Assembly (NCBI GenBank): GCA_963813525.1
Contig: CAWEZI010000005.1
Span: 174,798 to 198,797 of the forward strand
Direction of reading: 5' to 3'
DNA: 24,000 bases
Source: an uncultured Acidimicrobiaceae bacterium
Lineage (GTDB): Bacteria; Actinomycetota; Acidimicrobiia; Acidimicrobiales; RAAP-2
Shown in pieces: positions 2,847 through 18,741 of the stretch. The first letter of the stretch is position 1. Each line of letters opens with the position of its first letter. The notes beneath the pieces were generated by a model. It did not search any database and had not been told where the DNA came from. It saw only the letters and a list, made by a program, of their open reading frames with translations. The position numbers were made by a program, and so were the translations under genes.

Positions 2847-3614
2847 ATGACCGGCATCGGGGGGTTGCCGATCGTGCCGGATGTGTCCTGTCCGTCGGTG
2901 GCTTCTGCCTTGGCCACGTCGGGACTCAGCACCGCCTGCAAGGTCACCTCGTCAGTCACATCGGCGGTCACCTCATCCGCCGTTTCCTCCGTCGCCTCAT
3001 CGCTGGCCGGGCTCGGAGTGGACAGTGTGCTCAATGCCGTCGGTAGTTGGGTCACCGCCGGGGCCAGCTGGCTGTTGGCTCAGATCGGCGCCGTCATCAC
3101 CAGCACCACCTCTGTGGATCTCGGAGCTTCGTGGTTCTTATCCAACTACGCCACGATGGTGGCCCTGGCCGGCGTGGTCATCGTCCCCATGCTGCTGCTC
3201 GGGATCATGCAGGCCGTCTACAGGCAGAACGGCTCGATGCTGATCCGCTCGGTGCTGGTCAATGTGCCCCTGGCCCTGCTGCTGACGGCAGTGGCCGTAA
3301 AGCTGGTGTCGCTGGGACTGGCGTTGACCGACACCATGAGTGATGTCGTCTCGCACGGGGCGGGGGTCGACGCCGGGCGATTCCTCTCGGAGGTGAGTGT
3401 CGGTTTGTCCGGGTCTGGCACCGCTCAACCCGCCGTGCCCACCTTCGTCCTGTTCATCGCCGGCCTGGTGGTCGTATTCGGTGCGCTGATGGTGTGGGTC
3501 GAGCTCCTCATCCGTTCCGCCGCCATCTACGTGGCCGTGCTCTTCCTGCCGCTGGTGTTGGCCAGCCTGGCCTGGCCCGCTATAGCCCACTGGTGCCGTC
3601 CACTGTTTACATAG
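2847..3614 (+). CDS. VirB6/TrbL-like polytopic membrane protein, 5' fragment (host codons 2847-3599; last 4 codons plus stop come from the inserted element)
   Basis: Multiple TM helices. The sequence ...AAIYVAVLFLPLVLASLAWPAIAHWCR is followed by PLFT-stop, read from element DNA. The natural continuation RLVDTLVALILGKFVIV... is found in frame at 17647 onward. Confidence 0.8.
   Translation: MTGIGGLPIVPDVSCPSVASALATSGLSTACKVTSSVTSAVTSSAVSSVASSLAGLGVDSVLNAVGSWVTAGASWLLAQIGAVITSTTSVDLGASWFLSNYATMVALAGVVIVPMLLLGIMQAVYRQNGSMLIRSVLVNVPLALLLTAVAVKLVSLGLALTDTMSDVVSHGAGVDAGRFLSEVSVGLSGSGTAQPAVPTFVLFIAGLVVVFGALMVWVELLIRSAAIYVAVLFLPLVLASLAWPAIAHWCRPLFT
3596..3600. other. attL crossover core (CCGTC) of the integrated element
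   Basis: CCGTC is identical at 3596-3600 and 17643-17647, and the bases immediately flanking it differ on both sides. Host-type coding sequence stops here. Confidence 0.75.
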
Positions 3615-3668
3615 ATACCTTGGCTTGGTAAGGTGGCCCTGCATGGAAACCAGCCATGACCAGGAAGA

Positions 3669-5165
3669 ATGCGAGCCGGCCCGGTGTCCGTCATGAGAGC
3701 GGCGATCTACTGTCGCATCTCGTCGGACCGGGACGACACCAAGCTCGGCGTGGAGCGGCAGGAGCAGGACTGTCGCCAGCTGTGTGCAGACGAGGGCTGG
3801 ACGATCGTCGGGCCATACATCGACAACGACATCTCCGCCGCCGACCCGACGAAGGTCCGGCCGGAGTACCGGCGCCTGCTGAAGGACATCGAAGGCGGGA
3901 TGGTAGACGCGGTGGTCGTGTGGGCTGAGGACCGCTTGCACCGGCAGCCGATCGAGCTGGAGGAGTTCGTCAAGACGTGCGACCAGGCGGGAGTGACCAA
4001 GCTCGTGACCGTGTCGGGGACGATCGACATGGGCACCGGCGACGGCATGATGATCGCTCGCATCAAGGGAGCAGTCGCCGCTGAGGAAGTCCGCAAGATG
4101 AAGCAGCGGGTTATGCGGCGCAAGCTCCAGAAGGCGCAGAACGGGGAGTACGCCGGTGGGCTCCGACCGTACGGCTTCGATGCAGACGGCGTAACGCACA
4201 AGCTCGACGAGGTCGAGCTGATCCACGAGGCCATGAGACGGGCACTGGAGGGAGAGAGCCTCCGGTCGGTGTCTGAGGACTGGAACAGCAGAGGTCTCCA
4301 GACGGTCCGCGGCAAGCGCTGGTCCCCGACGATGGTCAAGCGGCTGCTCGTGTCGCCTCGCATGGCGGGACTTCGCCAGCACCAAGGAGAGATCATCGGA
4401 GATGGGGCATGGGAGCCCGTGATCGACCGAGCGACGTGGGAGCAGCTCTGTGCAGTACTACTAGATCCGTCCAGGCGGAAGCCTCCAGCTTCACGCAAGT
4501 ACCCTCTCGTCGGAGTCCTGGTCTGCGCGCAGTGTGGGTCAGACATGAAGGCGATGCCGAACGGTGGGCGTAGGCGCTACGGCTGTAAGTCGGAGACCGG
4601 CGGTTGTGGGAAGACCTACGTCCTAGCGGACCCGATTGAGAGCGTGGTCTACGGGACGATCGTCCCACTGGCGGACTCGCCCGCCTTGAGAGACGCGGCG
4701 CTAGCGGAAGAGGAGAGCACGGCCGAGGAAGCCCGCTCCCTGGTGATGGAGAACGCCGCCGACGAGAAGATGCTCACCCAACTAGAGGACGATTACGCCG
4801 ACCGGACTATCGACAAGAAGGCATACATCCGGCAGAGCAGGCGCCTGCAGGATCGCATCGAGAAGAGGGACGGTCGGCTGACGGCGATGCGAGGGCAGTC
4901 CGCTCTCGATCGGCTCGGTGGTCACGTAGCGGAGCGGTGGGACGAGATGAGCGCAGAAGACCGCCGGATGATAGTGCTGGCGGTCGTGAACCAGGTGACG
5001 GTTGGGGCGCAGCTCGTGAAGGGCTCCAACAGGTTCGACCCGAAGCGGCTGGGATGGAGCTTCCGCTACGAGCAGCTGTCGAAAGTAGCCAGCAGCGGAG
5101 GTCTGATGGGTTGGCCGCCTAAGCCGTTCGACCTCGAAGAGGCGAGGCGCTTGCTGCTCGGGTAG
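3669..5165 (+). CDS. large serine recombinase (integrase)
   Basis: The canonical N-terminus MRAAIYCRISSD (catalytic Ser) begins at the ATG at 3693, which is probably the true start; the track start is 3669. Resolvase catalytic domain, recombinase domain, zinc ribbon CAQCGSDM...YGCKSETGGCGKTY and a C-terminal coiled-coil region are present. The gene lies directly inside attL. Confidence 0.93.
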   Translation: MRAGPVSVMRAAIYCRISSDRDDTKLGVERQEQDCRQLCADEGWTIVGPYIDNDISAADPTKVRPEYRRLLKDIEGGMVDAVVVWAEDRLHRQPIELEEFVKTCDQAGVTKLVTVSGTIDMGTGDGMMIARIKGAVAAEEVRKMKQRVMRRKLQKAQNGEYAGGLRPYGFDADGVTHKLDEVELIHEAMRRALEGESLRSVSEDWNSRGLQTVRGKRWSPTMVKRLLVSPRMAGLRQHQGEIIGDGAWEPVIDRATWEQLCAVLLDPSRRKPPASRKYPLVGVLVCAQCGSDMKAMPNGGRRRYGCKSETGGCGKTYVLADPIESVVYGTIVPLADSPALRDAALAEEESTAEEARSLVMENAADEKMLTQLEDDYADRTIDKKAYIRQSRRLQDRIEKRDGRLTAMRGQSALDRLGGHVAERWDEMSAEDRRMIVLAVVNQVTVGAQLVKGSNRFDPKRLGWSFRYEQLSKVASSGGLMGWPPKPFDLEEARRLLLG

Positions 5166-5197
5166 GCGTTGGCGGGGTAAGTGGGGGCATCGTAGGT

Positions 5198-5243
5198 GCT
5201 CGCAGGGGAGCGAAGAGAGATCCAGACAAACTCCCCCGCGAGC
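5198..5243 (+). terminator. stem-loop downstream of the integrase gene (possible terminator)
   Basis: GCTCGCAGGGGAG (5198-5210) pairs with CTCCCCCGCGAGC (5231-5243) at 12/13 positions with a 20-nt loop. There is no U-tract. Confidence 0.3.
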
Positions 5244-5458
5244 ATCCTGTAGAGGACATCGGCAAGCGCACGGAGACCTTGAGCGTGACCCGCTGGCACG
5301 CAGGGTCACTCGTGAGGTCCTGGCTGTGAGTCGATGTAGGTCTACGTCACCCTGCTGGGCACCCGCGCCGGGCGTACGCCAGGTGCAGCTTCCACCACCG
5401 CACGGAGGTAACTAGGGGTTAAAAAGTGCCTCTGACCTGCGAGTTTGCAGTAGTTGCG

Positions 5459-5467
5459 TGTTAAAAT
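5459..5467 (+). promoter_or_regulatory. candidate extended -10 promoter element for the rightward replication/early operon
   Basis: TGTTAAAAT (TGn + TAAAAT) sits in the only AT-rich patch of the 5166-5509 intergenic region, about 45 nt upstream of the SD AGGAGA and the ATG at 5510. Confidence 0.3.
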
Positions 5468-5509
5468 AAATCAGGAACTAGACCACAAGCACCACAGAGG
5501 AGAACCACC

Positions 5510-5704
5510 ATGTCACGAGAAGTCCAAGCGTTAACGCTCTCGCAAGTCGCCGAGCGGCTCAACATCACGTACGCCACCGTTTACGCAATGGTGCACGACG
5601 GCCGTCTGCGGTCGTTTCGGCTCGGTAACGGCAGCCACGCGCGATTTCGGGTCACGGAAGAGGACCTCACGGCGTTCGTCATGCGAGACATGGCGCAGCC
5701 GTGA
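5510..5704 (+). CDS. excisionase-family (MerR-like) helix-turn-helix protein; candidate recombination directionality factor or regulator
   Basis: 64 aa. LTLSQVAERLNITYATVYAMVHDGRLRSFRLG...RFRVTEEDLTAFV is the classic HTH_17/Xis-type pattern. A strong SD, AGGAGA, lies 6 nt upstream. Confidence 0.8.
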   Translation: MSREVQALTLSQVAERLNITYATVYAMVHDGRLRSFRLGNGSHARFRVTEEDLTAFVMRDMAQP

Positions 5705-5729
5705 GTCAAGGACAGCGACCAAGGAGACG

Positions 5730-5939
5730 ATGAAGATGAGTGATGGGAACAACCTGGCCATCGCACTTGCGAAGCGCGTCATCGACGTTCTCCACAATGA
5801 GCATGGGATGGAGCCTGGGATGGAGAGGCGCGCAGCGTTGAGTGACGTGATGGACCGCCTCGACTTCCTCTACGCGTCGACAGATTGGGAGATCCACGAG
5901 GCGATCGCCGCCTACTTCCGTGAGCGAGAGGAGACGTGA
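5730..5939 (+). CDS. hypothetical small acidic protein
   Basis: 69-aa ORF with SD AAGGAG at 5721-5726; the ATG at 5736 has better spacing than 5730. The stop overlaps the start region of the next gene (GTGATG at 5936-5941). Confidence 0.55.
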   Translation: MKMSDGNNLAIALAKRVIDVLHNEHGMEPGMERRAALSDVMDRLDFLYASTDWEIHEAIAAYFREREET

Positions 5940-7354
5940 TGGAGGACGACATCGACCCGAAGGCAGAGCGTGGCGACACGCAGCTCGCGCTAGCCGCCGC
6001 CGCTGTCGAGACGTTGCGTGGTCGAGCTGTATGGCGACAGACCCGCCGTGAGTGGTGGATGCGGGCCAAAGACGACCCATCGATGGTCTGGACGGAGGAA
6101 GACCGCGAAGGCGTAGGAATCGCGGTTCGCGATGTCGTCTTCGCGGCCAAGCCAGCCGCCGTTGCCGGAACCGTCGACGCTGTGAAGCGACTCGCCAGGC
6201 TAGAGCTGAGCGTGAGCGAGAGCGTCTGGGACCGACACCCGTGGCTGATGCCTTGCGCCAATGGCGTGCTCGATCTGCAGACTCAGACGCTGCTGAAAGA
6301 CCCAGCGCCCGAGCTGTACATCACGAAGGTGGCTCCCGCTGCCTATGACCCAGGTGCCGAACGTGACCTCGTTGAGGCGCACGTGAAGATGCTCTTCGAG
6401 GGAGACGAGGATCTAGCGCACTGCTTTCAAAAGCAGGTAGGCGCGGCGCTTGTGGGAGACGCAGAGTCCGAGAAGCCACAAGTGTTCGTCGTCCTCATCG
6501 GTCCATCCGGTGGTGGCAAAGGTACGACGACGCACGCACTCAGTAAGGCGCTGGGGAGCTACGTATCGTCCTTCAACGCCGGGGACTTCGTGAAGAAGAA
6601 GACCGAGCGCCACCTCGCTTGGATGCGGGACTTCGACGGAGTTCGCATCGCCGTCATTGAGGAGCTGAAACCCCAGCCACTGGACGTTGGCTTGGTCAAG
6701 AAGCTGAGTGGAGGCGACACGCTCGTCGCGAACGAGATGAGGATGGCCGACAGCAAATGGGTGCCGTCTCACACGATGTTCTTCACTTCGAACGTCGCTC
6801 CGGACTTTGACGGCGATGTGGTCGGTATTCCCCGCCGCTACGTACCGCTGGCCACCGGCCCGCAACGCCAAGACCCGGACGGAGACTACGTGAAGCGAGT
6901 GCTCCGTCAGAGCGAGGGATGGCTGGCGTGGGCGATCGAGGGCACGCGGATGTGGCTGGAGGAAGACGACGGTGGACTCATCACCCTGCCGAAGCGAGTG
7001 ATCGAACTCCGAGACTCGCACATCGTGGACGACGACCCGTTCTCTGAGTTCATCACAGAGTGGATCGAGGTACGTCCAGACAGCGCCTGCTGGCGCGACC
7101 AAGTGCACAGCGCCTTCCAGCGCTGGTCGATCGACCAAGGCGACTACAAAGTACGCGTTGGCAGTGACCCGCGCTGGAAGGCACTCCACACCCGGCTCGA
7201 CATGATCCCAGGCGTCACCCAGAAGCGGTCAAGCACACAGCGCGGGTGGGCCGGCATCCACGTGCGAGACCTCTCGCTGAGCGAACACTTCGGCGCGACC
7301 GGCCACAGCTCGCCACTGCAAGAGCTAGCTGACGGCCTCACTCGCAGGGGCTGA
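5939..7354 (+). CDS. phage/plasmid primase-helicase, P4/D5 family (D5_N plus SF3 NTPase domain)
   Basis: PCANGVLDLQTQTLLKDPAPELYITKVAPAAYDP is the D5_N signature. Walker A is LIGPSGGGKGT and Walker B-like is RIAVIEEL. SD AGGAG lies 5 nt before the ATG at 5939; the track start is the GTG at 5936. I see no separate primase catalytic domain in the short N-terminus. Confidence 0.88.
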   Translation: MEDDIDPKAERGDTQLALAAAAVETLRGRAVWRQTRREWWMRAKDDPSMVWTEEDREGVGIAVRDVVFAAKPAAVAGTVDAVKRLARLELSVSESVWDRHPWLMPCANGVLDLQTQTLLKDPAPELYITKVAPAAYDPGAERDLVEAHVKMLFEGDEDLAHCFQKQVGAALVGDAESEKPQVFVVLIGPSGGGKGTTTHALSKALGSYVSSFNAGDFVKKKTERHLAWMRDFDGVRIAVIEELKPQPLDVGLVKKLSGGDTLVANEMRMADSKWVPSHTMFFTSNVAPDFDGDVVGIPRRYVPLATGPQRQDPDGDYVKRVLRQSEGWLAWAIEGTRMWLEEDDGGLITLPKRVIELRDSHIVDDDPFSEFITEWIEVRPDSACWRDQVHSAFQRWSIDQGDYKVRVGSDPRWKALHTRLDMIPGVTQKRSSTQRGWAGIHVRDLSLSEHFGATGHSSPLQELADGLTRRG

Positions 7355-7588: not shown

Positions 7589-7673
7589 CGCTGAGCAGGG
7601 TACAGCGCTCTGACCTGGTACTTCGCGCTCGCGTGCGTGATACGATGGATCCCCCGGATTTGGAGGTTCTCAC

Positions 7674-7847
7674 ATGGATAAGCAGTTCAACGTAGGCGCA
7701 CGCGTCCTCGTTCAGCCCTACGGGATGGTAGGTGACGTGGAGGCGATCGGGCGAGGATGCGCTCGGGTGCGGGACGTGAAGTTGAACCGCAATGGCCGCC
7801 GCTCGTTCTACCACTTCCCTCTCGACTTCTTGAAGTTGGCCGTCTGA
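7674..7847 (+). CDS. small protein (57 aa), SH3/KOW-like by pattern
   Basis: ATG at 7674 with SD GGAGG 7 nt upstream. Product is MDKQFNVGARVLVQPYGMVGDVEAIGRGCARVRDV.... It is below the ORF-track size cut-off. The stop overlaps the next ATG (TGATG at 7845-7849). Confidence 0.5.
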   Translation: MDKQFNVGARVLVQPYGMVGDVEAIGRGCARVRDVKLNRNGRRSFYHFPLDFLKLAV

Positions 7848-7969
7848 TGGTGGCGGACGTGAGGCTGCCCTCGCTGTTCAGACCGAGGCAGAGGCCAGTG
7901 GAGCTGTGGCGGGAGATTCGAGACCATCGAGACGTGGCTCGCTTGTACGTACAGGTGCTGTGGACGTGA
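7847..7969 (+). CDS. small hypothetical protein (40 aa)
   Basis: The ATG overlaps the upstream stop. Third-position GC is about 80 percent by my manual count, the strongest coding bias in this segment. Confidence 0.45.
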   Translation: MVADVRLPSLFRPRQRPVELWREIRDHRDVARLYVQVLWT

Positions 7970-7982
7970 CGGTCGAAGCGAC

Positions 7983-8348
7983 GTGCGCACACTTCGAGGC
8001 AGGCGTGAGATGTGGCCTTCCTTCGATCGGAGGCTCTTGTCGTTGCGCAGAGCACTCGCGACCTCGCACCTGGGTTCGCACGAACAGATTGGAGACAGCG
8101 TGAACGTGTACTGCTTAGGTGGTCTCGTTGGTGAGCTTCTGTCCGTTGAGAACGGGACGGCTCGCGTGAAGTTGGAGAACGGCTCCGTGTTGGAGACCCG
8201 AGAGGAGCACGTTCGTGAGGTCGACGGACAGTTCAACGTGGCGGGAAACGGCGACTGGGCGCAGCCCGCAGATGGAGAGGCGAGCAACGTCATCTCGTAC
8301 CCGCTACCAAAGCCGACGCCCGCTTGGGTTGAGGAGCTCATCGCGTGA
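7983..8348 (+). CDS. hypothetical protein with SH3/KOW-like core paralogous to the 7674 gene (start uncertain: GTG 7983 or ATG 8010)
   Basis: IGDSVNVYCLGGLVGELLSVENGTARVKLENG aligns by eye with VGARVLVQPYGMVGDVEAIGRGCARVR of the 7674 product. The C-terminus is acidic. Confidence 0.5.
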   Translation: MRTLRGRREMWPSFDRRLLSLRRALATSHLGSHEQIGDSVNVYCLGGLVGELLSVENGTARVKLENGSVLETREEHVREVDGQFNVAGNGDWAQPADGEASNVISYPLPKPTPAWVEELIA

Positions 8349-8769
8349 CTTCAGCCGGGGCACGCGCTGCTGCCATTGGAGGACAGACCTCTTGGGGCCA
8401 GGATGCGCACATCGCGTGGCGGGTACCTGGTATGCGTGTGCGGGGCATGTCATACGTGCTGACGTGGATGCGTCACGTGCCATCACGCGAGTGGGCCAGT
8501 TGCCGGCCGATACGCGTGCACCGAGTGCGACGACCAGTACCCTTTCGTATGTTCCCCGCATCATGTGCGCACTGGAAAGTCCGGGGGATCCGCGGGGACA
8601 CACGAGCGCCCAACGAGAACACAGGTTCACGTTACGAGCCACACGTCGCTCCAAGTGCACACCGCGTGAGACGTGAGACCGTCCCCCGAGGCCACCAGGC
8701 TTGCCCAGAGACCACCAAGTGCCCTCGATTGATGCTCACTAGCCGGTCTGGCTAATCAACCAGCACAGG

Positions 8770-9285
8770 ATGACCAAGGAGAAGATGACCATGACTGCTC
8801 AACTGCCCGTTCAGTACGTCGAGGACGGGCTCGTGATCGTGCTCGATCGTCGTCACGCGCGCTCACTCGTTCGCGCTCTCCGTTCATACGAATCGTCGCT
8901 GCTGCAGGATGGTCGACTCGACTTGGCAGACGAACTTGGGGAGATGTGGAAGTCGTTTCATCTCCACGTCGACCTCATCGAAGAAGTCGAAGACATCTTG
9001 GAGAGCCACGAAGCCAACGAGTCTGTACAATCTGATCAGCAGCCCTGGTCGGTAGCTCGCTTGGTCGCGGTCACTGGCCTCACGAAGCGCACCGTGAACC
9101 GCCGATGCGCCGAAGGCAAGTTGCGTGCGACGAAGGTTGGCGGCGAATGGCGAGTTGACCACGCTACGGCTGTCGGTTTCGTTGAGGACTGCAAGCGAAG
9201 TGCTGCAGAGCAGGACCCGATCCGCACCTCGACGATGCGCCCCGAGTCCGGCCACTTCGCCACACCTCACTACCCCTCCCGATAG
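8770..9285 (+). CDS. DNA-binding protein with C-terminal excisionase-type HTH (possible packaging/small-terminase-like or regulatory role, unproven)
   Basis: 171-aa ORF. WSVARLVAVTGLTKRTVNRRCAEGKLRATKVGGEWRVDHATAVGFV is an HTH_17-type motif. SD AAGGAG at 8776-8781 favours the ATG at 8785 or 8791 as the true start. Confidence 0.7.
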   Translation: MTKEKMTMTAQLPVQYVEDGLVIVLDRRHARSLVRALRSYESSLLQDGRLDLADELGEMWKSFHLHVDLIEEVEDILESHEANESVQSDQQPWSVARLVAVTGLTKRTVNRRCAEGKLRATKVGGEWRVDHATAVGFVEDCKRSAAEQDPIRTSTMRPESGHFATPHYPSR

Positions 9286-9293
9286 GAGAACCA

Positions 9294-11063: not shown

Positions 11064-12026
11064 ATGGACAACCACACACGACGCAGGCTGATGCGCGAAG
11101 CAGGTCTCCCGACCGATGGCACTGAGTGGCGGTCTGCGGGGAACCCTCGACAGCTCGCTGCCGAAGCCCAAGGCATCGAGTACCGGGCCGTTCAAGCCCT
11201 GCACGCTGACTCAACGGACGCTTCTGTCCGCGAGCTTCAAGCGCATCTTCGCTTTGCCAAGCTGCACCCTCCATCAACGCGCACTCGCCTTCCCTGGCTC
11301 TCGACTTTCACGGACGAGAACTCCGCCAAGCTGCGCAACATCGAGGTGAACAGCGCTGCCACCATCGTCGAGCTGGTCCAGCGCGGTTCTACTCCTGCCC
11401 AAGCAGCTCGCGTCGTCACCTCACAGACCCGCCAACTGTACCGAGACGAAGCCGCTGCCGAAGCCATCTGGCTCCGAGTAGCGGAACTTGCCGAGCACAA
11501 GACGAAGCGCAACGAGCGGAAGGGCCGACGCAAGTCCTTCGCCGAACGACCGCGCCTCGTTCAAGAGGGCTGTCAAGCGTCTCGATGCCGCTCCGAAGCC
11601 ACCGCTCGTTTCGGATGTCGGCTTCGTCTCAGTCGACGGTCCTGCGTCCCCGACAGCGGGTCGTCAGAGCATCCGCAACAACTCGTCCAGCCGCCCACTC
11701 GGCGGCCATCGAAGAGGATCACAATCATGAGCTGCGTCATCAGCGTTCCAGCAGGTTCAACGGCGGTGGCCAGCGGAGTCGTCCTCGACAACGAAGTACC
11801 GCTCACCACCCACACCGGGGTGTGCACAGGGTCTTCCGGCATCGAGTCAGGAGCATGTACGCTCGACGTCAGCCAAGACGGAGTGGAGTGGATCAGCACC
11901 GCGCTCGCCGCTACCGCCTCTACGGTCACCAAGGCGACAGTCACGGGCGCTTACCGCTTCGTGCGAGCTTCCATCGGCACCACCATCGAAGGCGGTTCCG
12001 TTGAGGTGACGGTGGCTTCTGTCTAG
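11064..12026 (+). CDS. hypothetical protein(s): a 320-codon open frame that may be two genes or a fusion (N-terminal HTH-like part; C-terminal beta-rich ~99-aa part with its own SD/ATG at 11727)
   Basis: SD GGAG precedes the ATG at 11064. The N-part contains NSAATIVELVQRGSTPAQAARVV (HTH-like). In segment 11520-11726 third-position GC is equal in all three frames (about 64 percent), and all three frames are open from 11585 to 11727. SD GAAGAGGA precedes the ATG at 11727, giving MSCVISVPAGSTAVASGVVLD...VEVTVASV. Confidence 0.5.
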   Translation: MDNHTRRRLMREAGLPTDGTEWRSAGNPRQLAAEAQGIEYRAVQALHADSTDASVRELQAHLRFAKLHPPSTRTRLPWLSTFTDENSAKLRNIEVNSAATIVELVQRGSTPAQAARVVTSQTRQLYRDEAAAEAIWLRVAELAEHKTKRNERKGRRKSFAERPRLVQEGCQASRCRSEATARFGCRLRLSRRSCVPDSGSSEHPQQLVQPPTRRPSKRITIMSCVISVPAGSTAVASGVVLDNEVPLTTHTGVCTGSSGIESGACTLDVSQDGVEWISTALAATASTVTKATVTGAYRFVRASIGTTIEGGSVEVTVASV

Positions 12027-12088: not shown

Positions 12089-12360
12089 AACTTCGCCTGT
12101 CGAACCTCCCTCCTTGGTCAACGACAGACGACGACAGGTTCCTTTCCCCGTCGCAGCGTTGAAGCGCGGCCGAGGCGTCACGAACCTCTGCTGATGACTC
12201 CGCACTCTCACGCCCGGTCATCATTCACGTGGCCGGGCGTGAGTGGTCCCTCGGGATGGTCCCAGTCTGGCGTCTGGGGACAGATTGTGGTTCCTATCGC
12301 CGTCCCGATTCCTCAGTCACTCCGGTGGCCCGCCAACTACTGAGCCCATCCTTGCCATCC

Positions 12361-12400
12361 ATGAACACCATGAAGACCATGAAGACCATGAAGACCATGA
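12361..12400 (+). repeat. 9-bp tandem repeat ATGAAGACC (about 4.4 copies), each unit carrying an ATG in frame with the downstream gene
   Basis: The sequence is ATGAACACC ATGAAGACC ATGAAGACC ATGAAGACC ATGA. It ends 38 nt upstream of the SD-supported ATG at 12439. Confidence 0.9.
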
Positions 12401-12438
12401 TATCCTTGGATTGTTGGAATCTAAGGATAGGAGCAGAT

Positions 12439-12759
12439 ATGGATAAAGCAGTTCCGAACGGGCTGTGCTGGTGCGATTGCGGGGGGCATCCGAACTCGGG
12501 CTCCTTCTTTCTCCCCGGCCACGACAAGCGAGCCGAGCGGTACTTGGCGATCATCGAAAACTCGGAGCCCATCGCTGACCGCCTGGCAGCCAAGGGATAC
12601 ATTCCCGGAAAGAAGAGCTTGCGAGATGACACGTTGGAGGCCGACGACTCCTACGAGGAGTGCGGTCGCCTGACGCTCGACGGCGATCCGTGTTTGGTCA
12701 TCGGGAAGGGCATCGGGATGCGCCGGCATCGGGCCGACGACACTCGCCACACCGTGTAA
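12439..12759 (+). CDS. small Cys-rich protein with CWCDCGG...FFLPGHDKR motif (putative zinc-binding, function unknown)
   Basis: 106 aa. SD GGATAGGAG at 12424-12432, ATG at 12439. The motif LCWCDCGGHPNSGSFFLPGHDKRAE resembles a recurrent uncharacterised CxCGCG...F.PGHD.R family that I recall from actinobacteria and their phages. A terminator hairpin follows. Confidence 0.65.
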   Translation: MDKAVPNGLCWCDCGGHPNSGSFFLPGHDKRAERYLAIIENSEPIADRLAAKGYIPGKKSLRDDTLEADDSYEECGRLTLDGDPCLVIGKGIGMRRHRADDTRHTV

Positions 12760-12784
12760 CCGCTCGCAAAAACAAGCAGTAACG

Positions 12785-13046: not shown

Positions 13047-13051
13047 AGCGG

Positions 13052-13501
13052 TCAGGTTGGGCGACGGCTCCGTACAGCTCTAGCAATTCGATCGGCTGCT
13101 TCAGTCGCGGATTCGTGCTCCCACACCCGAATCGGCAGCCACCCAGCCTCGATGAGCCGCTCGTCCGTGTCTGCGTCCCGTTCGCGGTTACGCTCGATCT
13201 TCTCAGGCCAGTACCAACCGTTGACCTTGTGCTCACGCCGCCCGTGCTCCGGGCATCCGTGCCAGAAACACCCGTCGGCGAAGGCGGCGACGCGGGCCTT
13301 TCTGAATACAAGATCTGCTGTCCTGCGCAGTTCGGGCAATGGACGAACGTTGACGCGATATCGGAGCCCGTTGGCATGAACCGCACGGCGGAGCGCCAGC
13401 TCGGGCTTCGTGCCCCGCGACAACTGTGCCTGCATCTTTCTCCGCACGAGCGGCGAACTCGCGAATGGCAGTCGCGGATTCTCCAATGTTGAGCCTGTCA
13501 T
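13052..13501 (-). CDS. vsr: very short patch repair endonuclease (Vsr)
   Basis: 149 aa with TKPELALRRAVHANGLRYR...ADLVF...AAFADGCFWHGCPEH...W..KIERNRERD...GW..IRVWEHE, the canonical Vsr motif set. The start overlaps the upstream stop (TAATG). Confidence 0.92.
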   Translation of the reverse strand: MTGSTLENPRLPFASSPLVRRKMQAQLSRGTKPELALRRAVHANGLRYRVNVRPLPELRRTADLVFRKARVAAFADGCFWHGCPEHGRREHKVNGWYWPEKIERNRERDADTDERLIEAGWLPIRVWEHESATEAADRIARAVRSRRPT

Positions 13502-13818
13502 TACCGCCGAGGTTTGCGTGGCGACCCAGGCTTATACGAAAACACTCCAGGCCGGACTCTCTGGAAGCGAGCATCGTTCCAAAGTGCGGTGTAGACGTTT
13601 TTGCGCCTCTCCTTCAACGTGTCCCCACGCAACACAGCGCCTCCGTGGCGAAGGACAGTCCAGAAGTCATCCATGGATAGCTCGGAAAGCCCGTGCTCAG
13701 TGATATAGTCGATGAAGATCTGACGAATCTCTTCCCTGCTCATGTAGTTCGTCGTGTCGACGAAGTTGTCGATCTCATTGAAGTCAATCAAAAGCCCGTC
13801 TCCAGCAGTTTTTTCCAC
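13501..13818 (-). CDS. small HARE-HTH-like protein embedded in the RM operon (start GTG 13818 or ATG 13743)
   Basis: MSREEIRQIFIDYITEHGLSELSMDDFWTVLRHGG...KNVYTALWNDARFQRVRPGVFSYK fits the HARE-HTH pattern (...L..D.RF..v..G.y.l) as I remember it. With the GTG start it overlaps the upstream gene by 31 nt. Confidence 0.6.
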   Translation of the reverse strand: MEKTAGDGLLIDFNEIDNFVDTTNYMSREEIRQIFIDYITEHGLSELSMDDFWTVLRHGGAVLRGDTLKERRKNVYTALWNDARFQRVRPGVFSYKPGSPRKPRR

Positions 13819-14663
13819 ATGTCGTCACCTGGTTGGATCTGGTACTGGGATCTGAAGTCGGATGCCAGTTCCGTCTTTTTCCCTTTCAACAGGTCATCGA
13901 TCGGTTTGCCGGCCTCGGCGGCGAACATTGCTTCACCTTCGGCCATTCCGTTGAAGATATCGACGTGGGCGTCCTCGTAGCCGGCCAGCCAATCCCAGAA
14001 CTCTCTGCCAACAAGGATCGCCACCTTGTCGTCGGGATAATCGCCTTTGACAATGTCGGGCTTATTGGAGAGCTGCTCTCTTCGCCCATAGCTGACTGCG
14101 TAGATGACCGGATCATTCCCATGCGTAACAAATCCGGCGACGTTTGCATGCATTTGGTGTGCCATCGTGTCGTTGATCGTCATGGGCCCAGCCTTTATCG
14201 AGACCAAGTGCCTTTTTACCTCACCTGTGGCCGGGTTCGGCTTTGTGGCTTCCTTGTCGATTTCCTTGAAAGCTTCCCACTGGTGATCATCCTCACGCTC
14301 GGGAGGTGTAATCGCTCCGAAAAGAGGCGGCAGGTACAGGTCAACTAACCAGCCGTACGCCGTTTCGTTCCCTGCCACGAGAGTGGCATTGACCACGTAT
14401 TCGATTACGTCTTCAGGAGTGTCCAAGCCGTGTATCTGCCGGATCGTTCTAAGCATCAAGATGTTTAGGCTGAGATCCTTCAGCTTGAGCTTTTTGATTT
14501 TCCCATAGCGCCTTGTCAGAAAGTCGCGAGTCTCGCCCGCAACGAGCGTTCGGATCTTCGCTCGCCGTTCTTCGAGCGGCAATGCGGCAGCAGCTTGTCC
14601 GAGGGCCACTCGAGCAGCTTCTCCTGCCTTGACTGCGTCGGATCGCTTCTTTGGACCGGCCAT
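13788..14663 (-). CDS. putative type II restriction endonuclease partner of the adjacent m5C methyltransferase
   Basis: 291 aa. SD GGTGGGAG lies 4 nt before the ATG. It is located between the MTase and vsr on the same strand. A possible PD-(D/E/S)xK-like element is IDKEA...EVKRHLVSIKAGP (SxK as in the Cfr10I-type variant). The assignment rests on context plus a weak motif. Confidence 0.55.
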   Translation of the reverse strand: MAGPKKRSDAVKAGEAARVALGQAAAALPLEERRAKIRTLVAGETRDFLTRRYGKIKKLKLKDLSLNILMLRTIRQIHGLDTPEDVIEYVVNATLVAGNETAYGWLVDLYLPPLFGAITPPEREDDHQWEAFKEIDKEATKPNPATGEVKRHLVSIKAGPMTINDTMAHQMHANVAGFVTHGNDPVIYAVSYGRREQLSNKPDIVKGDYPDDKVAILVGREFWDWLAGYEDAHVDIFNGMAEGEAMFAAEAGKPIDDLLKGKKTELASDFRSQYQIQPGDDMWKKLLETGF

Positions 14664-14726
14664 GTGGCTCCCACCTCAATCCCAACCTTTGGGAGCCTAG
14701 TGACTGAGCGGGAGGGAGACTGGTGA

Positions 14727-16040
14727 CTACGCGGAGACGGTGCCCGCTTGGTAGTACCTTGACCTTGAGTTTTCGTCTTTGGACGACCAGACGAAGGCCT
14801 CGCCGGCCTTCCACCATCGCCTTGTTCTGACGTGCGAGCCCAGGTAGATCTTCCTAAACTGCTCTGCATCCGCCGGTGGCCGTCGTCGACGGGTTCCAAG
14901 CACTTCCAGCCTGTCGGCTACCAGGTCCGCGGCGATACGACCAAGCCGCGCCGGAACTGCGTTGCCTGCCTGCTCGTACTGCTGCTGCGTGGACCCGGAA
15001 AATACCCAATCGCGGGGAAACTCCTGGATCGCTGCGTATTCGGCGATCGAGAGTACGCGAACCTCATCGGGATGGCACATCGAGGTGCTGGCGTGATTGG
15101 GCATGGTGGTCAAGGTCGGACAGGGCAGGTCCCAGCTAAGCCGTCGCCACCACCCAGACCGGCCACCTTTTGCGTCGTACGCTCGACCCATCGACTCTCG
15201 CGCTACATCGGGAGGCAACGTGCGCCAGTTTCCGCCGGGCGGCACCATTGCCAAATACGACTTCTTCCGCGGGCTGAAGTCAAGCAGCGTGGGCGACGGT
15301 TCCTTTAGATGGCCTATGGCATCGAACAACGTGCGGTGCGGCAAAAGTGAACTTTCACCTCGGTTGATTCGCTCAGGCGGTCCATGCGTCGCCCCCGGAA
15401 AATCAATGACATCTCCGAGACGATTGCCGACCATGAGCACGCGCTCTCTCAGCTGAGGTGCTCCATAGTTGACGGCGTTAACTTCGAAGCAGTCGATCCG
15501 GTATTTGCCGTCCGAGAGCCGAAACAGGTCTTCGGCCCAGCGTTCCACGACGGAGCCCGGAACCTCGTCGGTCTGCAGCGGCGCACCACCCTTTGCCGGC
15601 CGCTCCGCTATGGGGCGGTGACGGAGGGCCGCAGACAGAAGTCCGCGAACGTTCTCCAAGACGAAGTATTTGGGACGCAGAGCAAGAACCCAGTCCATAT
15701 AGTTCCAAAGAAGCTCGCCCCTTGAATCCTCCACGGACTTACGCCGACCTGCTGTGCTAAAAGCCTGGCATGGTGGTCCACCGACGAGCAGATCGAGTTG
15801 TCCAGCTCGCAAACCGAGCTCTTTCATCATTCCCGATGCTGATACGCCTCGAATGTCGCCCTGAATGATTTGCGTCTGAGCCGACCCAATGCGTCCTGCA
15901 TCTCGGTTAAGTCCAATCGTCTCGCAGAACACTGGGTTGACCTCAAGGCAAGCCAGAAGCTCGAAACGCTTGGTTTCGTGAATTCCGACATCCAATCCAC
16001 CGGCACCTGAGAACAACGAGAGCGAAGTGAATCTGTCCAC
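14727..16040 (-). CDS. DNA (cytosine-5)-methyltransferase
   Basis: 437 aa with motif I LFSGAGGLDVG, motif IV GGPPCQAFS, motif VI ENV, motif VIII QLRERV and motif X GNAVP. The start codon is GTG. Confidence 0.95.
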   Translation of the reverse strand: MDRFTSLSLFSGAGGLDVGIHETKRFELLACLEVNPVFCETIGLNRDAGRIGSAQTQIIQGDIRGVSASGMMKELGLRAGQLDLLVGGPPCQAFSTAGRRKSVEDSRGELLWNYMDWVLALRPKYFVLENVRGLLSAALRHRPIAERPAKGGAPLQTDEVPGSVVERWAEDLFRLSDGKYRIDCFEVNAVNYGAPQLRERVLMVGNRLGDVIDFPGATHGPPERINRGESSLLPHRTLFDAIGHLKEPSPTLLDFSPRKKSYLAMVPPGGNWRTLPPDVARESMGRAYDAKGGRSGWWRRLSWDLPCPTLTTMPNHASTSMCHPDEVRVLSIAEYAAIQEFPRDWVFSGSTQQQYEQAGNAVPARLGRIAADLVADRLEVLGTRRRRPPADAEQFRKIYLGSHVRTRRWWKAGEAFVWSSKDENSRSRYYQAGTVSA

Positions 16041-16154
16041 TTATGCCCCTTGACCTGGTACGAGACCTTTAGACATGGGCATACGTCTGACTCTATCCCG
16101 TGGCTATGTCACGGTCGTGGCAAGCGCGGCGTCAGTCGCCGTAACTGGCCCGTT

Positions 16155-16397
16155 CTACGAGAACGGGCTTCCGCCAGCCTTTGCAGTGCCCGTACCCGTC
16201 CGCCCGCTTCGTCCCTGAGGCTTGTTGATGCTCTTGCAATCTGGACCCAAGCGATGGAAGAGCAAAGCTGAATCCTCATCCTCAACTTCGGTGTCGAACC
16301 GAATCCGCTTTGAGCAGAGAGGACATGAAGTAGTCACCTTGACTTGTCGGGGCTTCGGATCGTCTGCCACTCCGGCAACGCTAGCGCAGCCATGCAC
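16155..16397 (-). CDS. possible small protein with CPLC...H...C zinc-knuckle-like spacing (start uncertain)
   Basis: 80-aa track ORF (GTG start) between the TM peptide gene and the MTase gene. Only modest codon bias and no clear SD. Confidence 0.3.
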   Translation of the reverse strand: MHGCASVAGVADDPKPRQVKVTTSCPLCSKRIRFDTEVEDEDSALLFHRLGPDCKSINKPQGRSGRTGTGTAKAGGSPFS

Positions 16398-16409
16398 CTA
16401 ACATTCGGG

Positions 16410-16574
16410 CTACAGATCGCGCAGGAAAGCGGCGACTGTAAGCGCCGACGTGACCAACAGGATTGGGTCAACCCGCTTGCCGGTGGCCGCCTTGTAAACG
16501 GTGAACGCCGCAAGACCCGCTCCGACCCATCTCCAAGGGTGTCCGTCGTCTGATGCGACTGCTGTTCGTGGCAT
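16410..16574 (-). CDS. small hydrophobic protein (54 aa, two short hydrophobic segments)
   Basis: An excellent SD, GGAAGGAG, lies 6 nt upstream of the ATG at 16574. Product is MPRTAVASDDGHPWRWVGAGLAAFTVYKAATGKRVDPILLVTSALTVAAFLRDL. It is below the ORF-track cut-off. Confidence 0.5.
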   Translation of the reverse strand: MPRTAVASDDGHPWRWVGAGLAAFTVYKAATGKRVDPILLVTSALTVAAFLRDL

Positions 16575-16634
16575 CTTTCACTCCTTCCCTGTTTAGTTGT
16601 CCCTCCGCTTCACTATGCCGGATGGGTGTGACGC

Positions 16635-16654
16635 GCCCGCCGGTTCAGGCGGGC
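16635..16654 (-). terminator. short GC hairpin between the 17093 gene and the TM-peptide gene (attenuator/terminator candidate)
   Basis: GCCCGCC (16635-16641), a 6-nt loop, then GGCGGGC (16648-16654): a perfect 7-bp stem with no U-tract. Confidence 0.25.
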
Positions 16655-16691
16655 TGCTGGAACATCAGTTGTGGTTGGGCCGGCCGTTGGT

Positions 16692-17093
16692 TCACTCGGA
16701 AGCTCGCTGAGACCGATGGTCCTGTCCCAGTGCTTGCCACCGCCCGGTAGCCCCCAGGCCCGGGAACTGGACCTCGGCGTTGAAGGCCACGACCAGTCGT
16801 TGGTCGGCGCCCTCGACAGCACCGGGTGGTCGGCCTGTCTCCATGTCCGCTTCGAGACGAATGATCGGCTCACCTCCGTCCTCCCGCTCAAGGAGCATGG
16901 TGACGTGGTGTCGTCGGTTGGTCTCGGTCCAAGGAATGAGGATCGTCAGTCCGATGCCCATGTGAAACGGCGGAGCTGGCTGTCCAGGCATGACCACCTG
17001 GTTCAAGTCGGTCCAACCGCCGCCCATCAGGTAGAGGAGACCGTTCTGGGATTCGGCGTGGTTGGCCAGGATGAGGGTTTCAATTTGGGGCAT
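16692..17093 (-). CDS. uncharacterised conserved protein (DUF6941-like pattern), C-terminus possibly frameshifted
   Basis: SD GAAGGAG precedes the ATG at 17093; the track ORF extending to 17564 is an upstream artefact. MPQIETLILANHAESQNGLLYLMGGGW...IPWTETNRRHHVTMLLEREDGGEPI...GRPPG matches an actinobacterial family of unknown function, from memory. The family-like C-terminus is encoded in the -1 frame after 16766 (see findings). Confidence 0.65.
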   Translation of the reverse strand: MPQIETLILANHAESQNGLLYLMGGGWTDLNQVVMPGQPAPPFHMGIGLTILIPWTETNRRHHVTMLLEREDGGEPIIRLEADMETGRPPGAVEGADQRLVVAFNAEVQFPGLGATGRWQALGQDHRSQRASE

Positions 17094-17259
17094 CGGCGGA
17101 TGCTCCTTCTTGTCGGGTGTGTACGATCTGTACAACAGTAAGTCTACGGGCGTCCACAGGTCGATGCAAGGAATGTGGACGCGGGCCTTCAGAATTGCCG
17201 GGAACTGCCCGATGACGCCTGATAGAACAGGGGTTAACACGGGCGATGGAGGAGACAAG

Positions 17260-17574
17260 ATGCCAGCGGCGACGGGGGCGAAGGGTGCAGAGGAGACCAA
17301 GAAAGGGGCGTCCGAGCTGATCTCGGTGCGCATCCCGACGGAGGAGGCCGAGCGTCTCCAGCAACTGGCAGCGGCCGAGGGCCAGTCGGTGTCCGAGATC
17401 ATCAGGCGGGCGGTCTCGATGCTTCTCCGCCCGTCAGTCTCGATCGACAGGGTCTCGTCCAACGCCAAGACCATGACGGTCCGGCACGTATACAGCAGCT
17501 CCTTCACAGAGCAGCTCCCGGTCCCGGACAGGCCCCCGCAGACGGTGCAGAACACCAGCTCCACAACGACTTAG
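17260..17574 (+). CDS. ribbon-helix-helix (CopG/Arc-type) DNA-binding protein
   Basis: SD GGAGGAG precedes the ATG at 17260. ELISVRIPTEEAERLQQLAAAEGQSVSEIIRRAVSMLL is a textbook RHH motif. It is the last gene of the element and reads outward toward attR. Confidence 0.75.
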   Translation: MPAATGAKGAEETKKGASELISVRIPTEEAERLQQLAAAEGQSVSEIIRRAVSMLLRPSVSIDRVSSNAKTMTVRHVYSSSFTEQLPVPDRPPQTVQNTSSTTT

Positions 17575-18741
17575 GGAGGACTGGGCCTCCCGAGGCTTGA
17601 TTCGGGCGGGGAGCAATCAAGATACCTGACTGAACACTCGACCCGTCGACTGGTCGACACCCTGGTCGCCCTCATTCTCGGGAAGTTCGTCATCGTCGCC
17701 GTACTGAGCCTGGCCGCCGGTGCCTTGGCCGGCGGCACAGGAGCGACGGCGAATGGTGGCGGTGGGGGTGCGGCAGGCGCCGGTGGAGGCACGGCTGGCG
17801 GTGAGGGCGGTGGCTTCGCAGCCGTTTTGGGTGGCACCGCCCTTCTCCTCCTCGCCGCGTTTGCGCCGTGGGCCCTCTTCCGCCTCCTGCCCTTCATTGA
17901 AGCGGGCGCTGTCGGTCACCTTGAGGGGCTCAGCCATCGCGCCCGACAAACAGCGGCCACCCCCGTCAGGGGCTTGGCTGTTGTGGCCATGCGGTCGTCA
18001 GCGGCTGGAGCGGTCATCGGTGCCGGCAGTGGTGTCGCCGGCGGGTTGATCGGCTCGGCCGTCGGATCACTCGGTGCGGGCGATTCGGGCGGATCGGGCG
18101 GAACCGCCGGTGGACTCGGCGCCGGAACTGCCGGCGGTCCCGGTGGCGATGGACCGCCTGGAACTCGGCCTGATCCCGAGCCGTCCTCCGCCGAAAGGAC
18201 CGGGGTGGGGACTTTGGATTCTCCGGGACACGGGATACCGGCATGGGCGGTGCATCCGCAAGCAACCGCTGCCGCCCGTCGTCACTTTGGTCACCTCCTC
18301 TACGGAGAAGGGGCCGGTGGACCAGAGGCAGATCCAACCCGTGCCGAACAGATGTCATTGCCTTCGTCCGGGCCGGTCGGATCGTCCCTTCCGGGTCCGG
18401 CCGGGGTGGATGGGGCAATTTCGAGTAGCAGTGGCAGTGGCAGTGGCAGTGGCAGCGGCTGGGGCAGTGGCAGTGGCAGTGGCAGTGGCTGGGGCAGTGG
18501 CAGTGGCATCGGCACGGCGGGCGGCACGGCGGGATCCGGCCCAGCGTTTGAGGTATCCCGGTCCCCCGATCCGGCGCCAAGGCACGCCCTGCGACCCGAC
18601 GTGATCGGCCATGACGAATTGGGTGTGCGGTTGATTCCCGCGCAGCGGTTACCGGGTCCTCCTCCGTTGCCGGCCGTTTCTCCCGGTGATCCATCGCCGA
18701 CGACACCCACCGACGATCCACTCCTGGGCGCCGGACCGTGA
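17575..18741 (+). CDS. VirB6/TrbL-like membrane protein, 3' fragment (host-derived from 17648; open frame begins at 17575 right after the RHH stop codon)
   Basis: The frame reads ...STRRLVDTLVALILGKFVIVAVLSLAAGALAGG..., then further TM helices (FAAVLGGTALLLLAAFAPWALF), then a long Gly/Ser/Pro-rich tail. The track start is the TTG at 17725. The stop overlaps the next gene start (GTGA at 18738-18741). Confidence 0.75.
   Translation, partial: GGLGLPRLDSGGEQSRYLTEHSTRRLVDTLVALILGKFVIVAVLSLAAGALAGGTGATANGGGGGAAGAGGGTAGGEGGGFAAVLGGTALLLLAAFAPWALFRLLPFIEAGAVGHLEGLSHRARQTAATPVRGLAVVAMRSSAAGAVIGAGSGVAGGLIGSAVGSLGAGDSGGSGGTAGGLGAGTAGGPGGDGPPGTRPDPEPSSAERTGVGTLDSPGHGIPAWAVHPQATAAARRHFGHLLYGEGAGGPEADPTRAEQMSLPSSGPVGSSLPGPAGVDGAISSSSGSGSGSGSGWGSGSGSGSGWGSGSGIGTAGGTAGSGPAFEVSRSPDPAPRHALRPDVIGHDELGVRLIPAQRLPGPPPLPAVSPGDPSPTTPTDDPLLGAGP
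17643..17647. other. attR crossover core (CCGTC)
   Basis: It is identical to 3596-3600. Host coding sequence resumes in frame: CGT CGA CTG GTC GAC = R R L V D. Confidence 0.75.
18424..18509 (+). repeat. hexanucleotide (GGCAGT)n tract encoding an (SG)n-W repeat inside the VirB6-like C-terminal tail
   Basis: AGTAGCAGTGGCAGTGGCAGTGGCAGTGGCAGCGGCTGGGGCAGTGGCAGT... translates to SSSGSGSGSGSGWGSGSGSGSGWGSGSGIG, with a higher-order 30-bp unit ending in GGCTGG. Confidence 0.9.

Follow-up and report, generated by a model that had tools for sequence, protein, structure and literature searches.

A 14,042-bp element was found inside one gene of a 24,000-nt stretch of contig CAWEZI010000005.1 from an uncultured Acidimicrobiaceae bacterium (the whole stretch is called the window). 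The element occupies positions 3601–17642, with one copy of the shared core left out. It splits a gene for a SCO6881/CmdD-like membrane protein, which is the second gene of a five-gene cmd-type cluster resembling a type IV secretion system (T4SS). Its GC content is below that of the flanks, and three related loci lack it without any gap. It is probable that this is an intact integrative element, which its own serine integrase put into a conserved motif of the CmdD-like gene and which would spread by the satellite mechanism set out below. The insertion is polymorphic between near-identical strains.

Junctions, attachment sites and empty alleles

The two junctions share CCGTC (3596–3600 and 17643–17647). 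The shared core is exactly 5 bp, and there is no further identity on either side. The left open reading frame (ORF, 2847–3614) ends with ...LAWPAIAHWCR, followed by four foreign codons (PLFT) and a stop, and the frame entering from 17575 reads ...STR-RLVDTLVALILGKFVIVAV. When the N-terminal half of the gene (2847–3600, + strand, residues 1–251) was joined to the C-terminal half (17648–18741, + strand, residues 252–615, assigned from the junction, homologues and alignment), the result was an ORF of 754 + 1094 = 1848 nt that reads through 615 codons uninterrupted to its stop. The common CCGTC with differing flanks and the rejoined gene had been proposed in a preliminary description of this DNA, and both were reproduced by recomputation. 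A match of 5 bp is trivial by itself, so the external loci are the decisive evidence against chance.

The junctions define attL (3571–3630; B arm, core at 3596–3600, P' arm) and attR (17613–17677; P arm, core at 17643–17647, B' arm). Both were delimited from junction sequences and symmetry, attL also from the same junction in the independent assembly L007 and attR also from comparison across lineages. The reconstructed attP is a quasi-palindrome, ...CAAGATACCTGACTGAACACTCGAC-CC-GTCCACTGTTTACATAGATACCTTGG... (half-sites about CC ...CTGAACACTCGAC-CC-GTCCACTGTTTACA...; full junction CGACCCGTCCACTG), and attB has the half-sites ...CCCACTGGTG-CC-GTCGACTGGTCGAC... (full junction GGTGCCGTCGACTGG). 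Large serine integrases recognise short imperfect inverted repeats that flank a non-palindromic 2-bp crossover site. Around CC, the attP arms match each other at 9 of 12 positions, as the preliminary description had it, and the symmetry extends into longer arms (13/20 and 17/25). The remaining core dinucleotides gave an attP symmetry of just 2–4/12 and 4–7/25, and the score of 17/25 was reached by 0 of ~23,800 control positions in the window. The attB symmetry around the same CC is weaker (6/12 and 11/25). Judged from the symmetry, CC is likely the crossover dinucleotide. The palindromic CG in the core was also considered as the crossover, which would explain the two insertion orientations described below, and was rejected because its symmetry is 4/12 and 7/25 versus 9/12 and 17/25 at CC.

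Empty alleles were found in three related loci, where the preliminary description had suggested to look for empty attB sites. In the metagenomic locus L001, the two flanks abut without a gap (left flank to 10754, right flank from 10755) with 99.7% and 98.5% identity, and the predicted attB agrees with the L001 sequence at 75 of 75 nt. The flanks in L002 and L003 are likewise gapless, with identities of about 95–96% and about 90–92%. The filled allele was recovered a second time: an independent Logan assembly (L007, read set ERR12035940) contains the same attL junction and the integrase gene with 99.9% identity over 2,088 nt. The capsid and integrase genes of the element are also on record on one 3.4-Mb contig. 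Fusion of two unrelated contigs inside the gene is a general possibility in metagenome assemblies, and here it has next to no probability. Such a chimera is excluded by the gapless empty loci, the 75/75 match of attB, the independently assembled attL and the single 3.4-Mb contig. Furthermore, the two junctions coincide at a single base of the host gene, share a core and restore the frame exactly, and the same junction occurs in five further lineages. The junctions, the empty alleles, the attB match and the integrase domains described below confirm a base-pair-precise serine-integrase insertion into a single gene.

The rejoined protein has >1,200 homologues at E ≤ 1e-5 among 8,000 candidates scored. 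Their named sources are Acidimicrobiales metagenome-assembled genomes (MAGs), and the best homologue is 99% identical with full coverage. All 28 aligned orthologues (28/28) are continuous through ...AHWCRRLVDTL..., and a natural end near ...AHWCR, named in the preliminary description as the finding that would speak against a split gene, was seen in none of them. The junction lies in the most conserved stretch of the protein, where W243, P244, H248, W249, R251|R252, L253, V254, D255, T256 and L257 are invariant among the 28 orthologues, and the insertion motif consists of the codons H248-W-C-R|R-L-V-D. The hydropathy profile of the rejoined protein indicates 5–6 membrane segments and a Gly-, Ser- and Pro-rich tail of 240 residues. 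The break is in the basic HWCR|R loop just ahead of the membrane segment at ~257–275. The tail (~18400–18650) contains low-complexity repeats of the GSGSGSGW type and is predicted to be disordered; close orthologues differ in the length of this tail (615 aa versus 571 and 605 aa).

The label VirB6/TrbL-like, under which the split gene had been introduced, could not be verified. The gene encodes a polytopic inner-membrane protein two genes upstream of a VirB4-like ATPase, which is a trait of VirB6/TrbL-like proteins. However, Pfam, including TrbL, gave no match at E ≤ 1 for the rejoined protein or 27 orthologues, and a PDB profile search of the rejoined protein returned nothing relevant. An AlphaFold2 model from a 28-sequence alignment was too poor for use (predicted local distance difference test 50, predicted template modelling score 0.24), and Foldseek against PDB gave no meaningful match. 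PF19590 is listed for some orthologues in a precomputed table and was not reproduced in this analysis. The measurable affiliation of the gene appears to be with the SCO6881/CmdD family. The NCBIfam SCO6881 model matches residues 59–373 of the rejoined protein, across the junction, with E 4e-7, which is a sub-threshold match (29 bits versus a cut-off of 325), and the synteny points to the same family.

The integrase and repeated insertion into the cluster

The integrase gene (3669–5165, + strand; 498 aa, or 490 aa from the alternative start at 3693) sits directly inside attL, in agreement with the preliminary description, and begins 69 nt (ATG 3669) or 93 nt (ATG 3693) past the core. Its product has the full three-domain architecture of a large serine recombinase (Pfam Resolvase E 8e-30, Recombinase E 3e-14, Zn_ribbon_recom E 5e-8) and matches PHROG 95 (integrase, E 8e-107) and the solved 500-aa integrase PDB 9iu2 (E 1e-27). 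The catalytic N-terminal motif Y-x-R-[IV]-S is present as YCRIS (AAIYCRISSDRD), and the residues Y14, R16, I17 and S18 do not vary among its closest relatives. Two identical copies of the integrase were found, P0121 and P0251. The protein is ~35% identical to serine integrases of Mycobacterium prophages and actinophages, and IMG/VR yielded distant integrases only (33–37% identity) and no relatives of the capsid protein or the primase. With the phiC31/Bxb1-type integrases of actinobacteriophages it shares the domain architecture and the quasi-palindromic att sites with a non-palindromic central dinucleotide. Insertion inside host ORFs is known for large serine integrases of actinobacteriophages. 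Unlike the phiC31/Bxb1 type, the integrase here is carried on a 14-kb element without most virion genes, and its target gene is new. A 64-aa HTH_17/excisionase-AlpA-like protein is encoded at 5510–5704 (+ strand; Pfam HTH_17 E 4e-10; PHROG excisionase families), and an HTH_17 gene also follows the integrase gene in L008/L009. By its position, this protein is a candidate regulator or directionality factor.

Related loci were scanned with a 4-sequence integrase alignment; a 14-sequence alignment was too diverse. In five further lineages, integrases with 48–63% identity adjoin the orthologous gene at the same codon, which makes six lineages with the window. The integrase gene of L096 (58% identity) is beside the N-terminal half and co-directional with the host gene, as in the window. 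In the other four lineages, L008/L009 (63%), L010/L011 (57%), L098 (55%) and the Acidimicrobiaceae MAG chromosome L016 (48%), it is beside the C-terminal half and divergent. At the four alignable junctions (window, L008, L010 and L016), the element arm ends with ...CACT(C/G)G(A/T)(C/G), followed by CC (TC in L008) and then by the host B' half-site. The attL of L096 reads CACTGGTG-CC-ATC. The polarity of serine integrases is set by the central dinucleotide alone. The half-sites are near-symmetric, and the simplest reading of the two orientation classes is that the central dinucleotide is inverted relative to the integrase gene, CC versus GG. This apparent natural polarity flip is an inference, since each lineage of the other class provides only one junction.

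The cargo at the CmdD site is unrelated between lineages. ORFs without known family and a small resolvase were found in L008/L009, a Prim-Pol primase with an IS21-type pair (Mu-transposase-like and IstB) in L016, and an AAA_25 helicase, a sigma factor and a different capsid gene in L096. The closest relatives of the integrase also use unrelated targets. In L099 (8646–11536), the integrase gene adjoins a ComM/Mg-chelatase gene upstream of dprA, and in L097 (10001–11512) its neighbours are kinase, HU and ParA genes, and cmd genes are absent from the vicinity; both fall in the 54–56% identity range. This integrase clade most likely uses the CmdD site because the DNA there is highly conserved and loss of the gene is tolerated, and not as a result of host domestication.

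The VirB4-like gene of the same cluster is hit by a different serine recombinase, which starts with VYARISD. In L001, L009 and L016, this gene is broken right after the Walker-B motif (VVDEAWAILS|), and each break runs into the conserved element end ATTCAGCTAAACTACTGCTC and the second recombinase. The VirB4 site is intact in the window (~21473–21500, with the break equivalent at ~21486), L002, L003, L008, L010 and L015, and the L001 site is at ~14600–14680. The contigs L008 and L009 are otherwise near-identical and differ at the VirB4 site, and insertions at both the CmdD and VirB4 sites are present in L009 and L016. In L015 (9658–11377; CAWIBX010000003.1, an Acidimicrobiaceae MAG), a 48%-identical integrase adjoins a C-terminal fragment (residues 434–554) of an SCO6880-like gene, with ~7.5 kb between this fragment and the VirB4-like gene. 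The SCO6880-like gene of L015 may be a third insertion site in the cluster. It was also observed in L016 (4695–7688 and 14378–16611) that ~3 kb of extra DNA lies between the SCO6880-like and VirB4-like genes of the doubly interrupted cluster, and that the element at its CmdD site holds the IS21-type pair.

Gene content and nature of the element

The preliminary description had correctly recognised a serine-integrase element, but it overlooked the capsid gene, the primase and the restriction-modification (R-M) system and hence missed the phage-satellite look of the element. Downstream of the HTH_17 gene lies a D5_N primase/helicase gene (5936–7354, + strand; Pfam D5_N; PHROG DNA primase E 1e-52). 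It is followed by two ORFs with no family match in Pfam, PHROG and PADLOC scans (7808–8341, − strand, 177 aa; 8345–8755, + strand, 136 aa) and by a gene located upstream of the capsid gene, whose 171-aa product shows a weak HTH_17 motif (8770–9285, + strand; Pfam HTH_17 E 2e-4). The HK97-type major capsid protein of 455 aa (9689–11056, + strand) was assigned from Pfam Phage_capsid, PHROG major head protein and TIGR01554 (53 bits versus a cut-off of 27.5), and it shows 26% identity to capsid proteins of mycobacteriophages. The next gene encodes a conserved 320-aa protein (11064–12026, + strand), whose C-terminal domain of ~95 aa is common to stand-alone proteins of ~105 aa (49 representative homologues in a deep HMMER search). 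Its weak PHROG hints, all to C-termini of major tail proteins, are too little for naming. An ORF of 176 aa (12229–12759, + strand) had no family match in Pfam, PHROG, NCBIfam and PADLOC scans.

The right part of the element is on the reverse strand. It contains genes for a Vsr very-short-patch repair endonuclease (13052–13501, − strand; Pfam Vsr E 3e-16; PADLOC Vsr), an EcoO109I-like type II restriction endonuclease (13788–14663, − strand; Pfam RE_EcoO109I; PADLOC REase_II E 2e-16), a C5 cytosine DNA methyltransferase (14727–16040, − strand; Pfam DNA_methylase E 2e-45; PADLOC MTase_II E 4e-81) and a 290-aa DUF6941 protein (16692–17564, − strand; Pfam DUF6941 E 2e-9). The C5 methyltransferase, the endonuclease and the Vsr nicking endonuclease stand in one block and make up a type II R-M system with Vsr. 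GC content is 53–59% over the R-M genes (13500–16500), 60–65% in the rest of the element and 65–70% in the host flanks, and the drop over the R-M genes suggests separate acquisition of this block. Terminase, portal, protease, tail and lysis genes were not detected in the element by Pfam, PHROG, NCBIfam and PADLOC scans, and the ORFs without assignment are all too short to encode a large terminase. A search of the window for tRNA and Rfam families was negative, so the element is not a tRNA-targeting island. It has no DNA similarity to known phages or plasmids.

A sister element was found in L012 (2382–16500; ENA ERZ25039553 contig_48742) at another chromosomal site, between an NlpC/P60 gene and an AMP-binding gene. 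Its gene order is the same as in the window element, including a 177-aa weak-HTH_17 gene at the position of the 8770–9285 ORF. The primases are 78% identical, the capsid proteins 50–67%, the homologues of ORF 11064 46% and the serine integrases 43%. The R-M pair of L012 is different and consists of an N6_N4 methyltransferase and NA-iREase1. The replication and capsid core is thus kept while the integration and defence modules are exchanged, which argues against random prophage decay. A conserved core with swappable modules fits a satellite that supplies its own capsid protein and borrows the rest. On its gene content, the element leans towards a capsid-encoding phage satellite, a reading that we favour modestly.

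Another compact capsid-bearing element was observed in L013 (5500–18700) and L014. It carries an AAA_25 helicase, a Peptidase_S78 prohead protease, SocA_Panacea and a tyrosine integrase, and its capsid protein is 34% identical to that of the window. This element adjoins FtsK/SpoIIIE and RepSA genes, which are typical of an actinomycete integrative conjugative element (ICE).

The window element resembles known satellites in part. Phage-inducible chromosomal islands that form capsids (cfPICIs) are defined by a minimum of 9 out of 11 core components, among them terL, terS, head-tail adaptor and connector and protease, lack tail and holin genes, and have a median size of 14 kb (de Sousa et al. 2023, PMC10085698). 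Like cfPICIs and P4-like satellites, the window element is ~14 kb long and has a left module of integrase, AlpA/HTH regulator and primase with a capsid gene after it, and defence-type cargo. In contrast to cfPICIs, it has only ~4 of the core components (integrase, HTH regulator, primase and capsid) and thus falls outside their definition. The D5_N primase is shared with P4-like satellites, whereas psu, sid, delta and ash were not detected by PHROG and Pfam, which is weak evidence as these markers diverge fast. Moreover, its integrase is a serine recombinase and those of cfPICIs and P4 are tyrosine recombinases. The Streptomyces satellites MulchRoom and MiniFlayer have terminase, portal, scaffold and adaptor genes, no primase, and a tyrosine integrase or none (deCarvalho et al. 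2023, PMC10690885). They share with the window element an actinobacterial host, a small genome and their own major capsid protein. The window element is reversed in the other respects, with a primase present and packaging genes not detected.

The following mechanism is proposed. The integrase would cut both attP and attB at CC with a 2-bp stagger. Excision would need a directionality factor, for which the HTH_17 protein is only a candidate, and the excised element would replicate with its own D5_N primase/helicase. Packaging as a satellite would combine the HK97-type capsid protein of the element with terminase, portal and tail of a helper phage, and the R-M and Vsr module may serve as defence or addiction cargo. 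In the integrated state, the CmdD-like protein would be truncated after ~4 of 6 predicted membrane segments, and the rest of the cluster would be moved 14 kb from its promoter, with ~4.5 kb of convergent genes in between. Because of this truncation and the separation of the downstream genes from the promoter, the system is probably silent as long as the element stays integrated. The CmdD-like gene, and with it the system, would be restored by precise excision.

Several observations weigh against the reading as an intact element with a satellite lifestyle. The element-side P'-arm 27-mer GTCCACTGTTTACATAGATACCTTGGC, which would detect attL or attP, had 0 exact matches in JGI metagenome contigs and IMG/VR. 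The satellite reading is drawn from gene content, and a helper phage, a pac/cos site, a small terminase and an encapsidated copy are not known for the element. Five ORFs of the element have no annotation. The family of the element is rare, with members found in the window, in L012 and as a fragment in L095 only; a primase-profile scan of metagenomes gave one 2.2-kb fragment. Lastly, the halves of the split gene and the cluster are still intact ORFs in every occupied lineage, which fits recent insertion and selection for a restorable function equally well.

A decayed larger temperate phage, now immobile and with the gene permanently inactivated, would explain both the missing attP form in the JGI metagenome contigs and IMG/VR and a capsid gene that stands without terminase, portal, protease and tail genes. 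Such a remnant is quite unlikely. Every major ORF is intact, the layout (integrase, primase, HTH, capsid, ORF11064 and reverse-strand R-M) is kept in L012 despite 22–57% protein divergence, and the flanks of filled and empty alleles are <1% different, which points to a recent event. It is very improbable that the element is an integrative mobilizable element (IME) moving through the T4SS-like machine that it interrupts, since no relaxase, oriT-type or mobilization protein was detected in it by the same profile scans and its capsid gene points to phage-mediated transfer. In addition, the host cluster is without relaxase or ICE boundaries and stands in conserved chromosomal synteny. A precedent for such IMEs in ICE genes does exist: streptococcal serine-integrase IMEs sit in traG (VirD4), maff2 and snf2 of Tn5252-superfamily ICEs, and their excision on induction of conjugation was proposed (Coluzzi et al. 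2017, PMC5357655). The window element is like them in that it disrupts a conserved gene of a T4SS-like set site-specifically, that the integrase family correlates with the target and that several sites are used in one gene set. It is unlike them in its target, a chromosomal cmd-type cluster of Acidimicrobiia without relaxase or ICE features, and in its capsid and primase genes in place of mobilization genes, so that it looks phage- rather than conjugation-dependent.

A programmed switch, in which regulated excision turns the T4SS-like cluster on, is unlikely, although more than one observation agrees with it. In skin/SpoIVCA (sigK), SPbeta/SprA (spsM) and the Listeria comK prophage phi10403S, a large serine recombinase or phage integrase lies inside an ORF and excision restores the ORF exactly; such gene-splitting switches were reportedly described by Kunkel in 1990 and Rabinovich in 2012. 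These elements are fixed or near-fixed in their species, and their excision is tied to a host programme. Exact restoration of the ORF on excision is likewise given here. The same codon is occupied in six lineages with the gene halves still intact, and three genomes have the VirB4-like gene of the cluster split by a second integrase family, two of them (L009 and L016) carrying both insertions. In this the doubly interrupted cmd-type cluster resembles the heterocyst nif/hup genes with their multiple intervening elements. The integrase genes of the window and L096 are co-directional with the host operon and begin 25–93 nt past the truncated ORF, so that read-through could drive them. The Streptomyces cmd cluster is developmentally regulated (PMC2782261), and the hypothesis that excision restores function was also raised for the streptococcal elements (Coluzzi et al., PMC5357655). 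In contrast to the skin-type elements, the window insertion is not fixed, being absent from L001 (99.7%), L002 and L003, and both cargo and orientation vary between lineages; L008 and L009 likewise differ at the VirB4 site. The integrase gene is divergent from the host operon in 4 of 6 lineages, and read-through coupling is thus not conserved. The element keeps its autonomous replication, capsid and R-M genes and is not stripped down, and the integrase relatives at unrelated targets such as ComM also speak against a switch. In the search for excision junctions that the preliminary description had called for, empty-site alleles were found, but no attP junction was detected and neither an attP nor an attB junction was seen beside the filled allele in assembled data.

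A wider and speculative idea, to which we give little credence, is that the cmd-type cluster of Acidimicrobiia serves as a landing pad that is switched off and on by up to 2–3 different serine-integrase elements, in the CmdD-like, the VirB4-like and possibly the CmdC-like genes. Alternatively, satellites might silence a DNA-translocation machine and restore it on leaving. If true, the landing pad would be an actinobacterial counterpart of the multiply interrupted heterocyst nif/hup genes or of the Bacilli sporulation genes, and silencing by satellites could, for example, block rival elements or helper-independent DNA entry.

The principle that serine-integrase elements split genes, T4SS genes included, is not new and is already documented. 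What is new is the specific integrase with its att set, the integrase clade aiming at one codon of the cmd-type cluster in both orientations, and the second integrase family aiming at the VirB4-like gene of the same cluster. The compact combination of serine integrase, D5 primase, single capsid gene and swappable R-M genes is also new and fits none of the described satellite families, and it may represent an undescribed satellite layout in a phylum with few known satellites. With attB, attP, attL and attR, the complete natural set of att sites is resolved for a new serine integrase, whose source is an uncultured actinobacterial class. An integrase clade acting on the same 30-bp target in both orientations offers material for studying the evolution of target choice and polarity, and possibly for genome engineering. 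The repeated hits at two ultra-conserved motifs of the cmd-type cluster could help to explain the function of this cluster or show that its loss is harmless.

The host cluster and its setting

Upstream of the cluster, the window contains genes for an OmpR-type response regulator (211–1080, − strand; Pfam Response_reg and Trans_reg_C) and a sensor histidine kinase of 412 aa (1077–2315, − strand), which matches the HisKA/HATPase_c gene in the syntenic loci L001–L003. The first cluster gene encodes a small DUF6112-type protein (2386–2850, + strand), whose orthologues in L001–L003 and L096 carry PF19607 DUF6112, and its stop overlaps the start of the split gene. After the split gene follow genes for an SCO6880/CmdC-family protein (18738–20402, + strand; NCBIfam SCO6880_fam, 258 bits versus a cut-off of 60), a VirB4-like (CmdB-like) ATPase (20399–21880, + strand; NCBIfam VirB4-like families; PDB 4ag5 VirB4, E 2e-13) and a VirD4/TraG-type coupling protein (21877–23493, + strand; Pfam T4SS-DNA_transf E 4e-27 and TraG-D_C).

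The cluster had been called a T4SS operon. The VirB4-like and VirD4-like ATPases agree with this name, but no relaxase is in view and the cluster is chromosomal between housekeeping genes. In L001–L003, it lies between serS with a two-component system and P450 and luciferase-like genes. No relaxase or ICE integration module was found in the window or within ±10 kb of the cluster in these syntenic loci. The cluster is best described as a conserved chromosomal T4SS-like (cmd-type) cluster rather than a demonstrated conjugation apparatus. Nesting of the element in an ICE was also considered and was rejected, given the conserved chromosomal synteny and the lack of a visible relaxase or ICE boundary.

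SCO6878, SCO6880 and SCO6881 resemble cmdB, cmdC and cmdD of the Streptomyces cmdABCDEF cluster (Xie et al. 2009, PMC2782261). The latter codes for a VirB4-like ATPase together with membrane proteins, and Streptomyces requires it to sporulate and to segregate its chromosomes normally (PMC2782261). In an SCO6881 null mutant, neither a sporulation nor a pigment phenotype was seen (unpublished data mentioned in PMC2782261). The host cluster of the window has in common with cmdABCDEF and SCO6878–6881 the VirB4-like ATPase, the SCO6880/CmdC-like protein and the SCO6881/CmdD-like membrane protein. In contrast to Streptomyces, the gene order is different and the VirD4-like gene is extra in the Acidimicrobiia cluster.

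When positions 1–2000 of L096 were compared with 1077–3600 of the window, the histidine kinases were 90% identical, the DUF6112 proteins 47% and the CmdD-like proteins 65%. The cmd-type cluster seems to change much faster than the chromosomal genes beside it, by divergence or by exchange.

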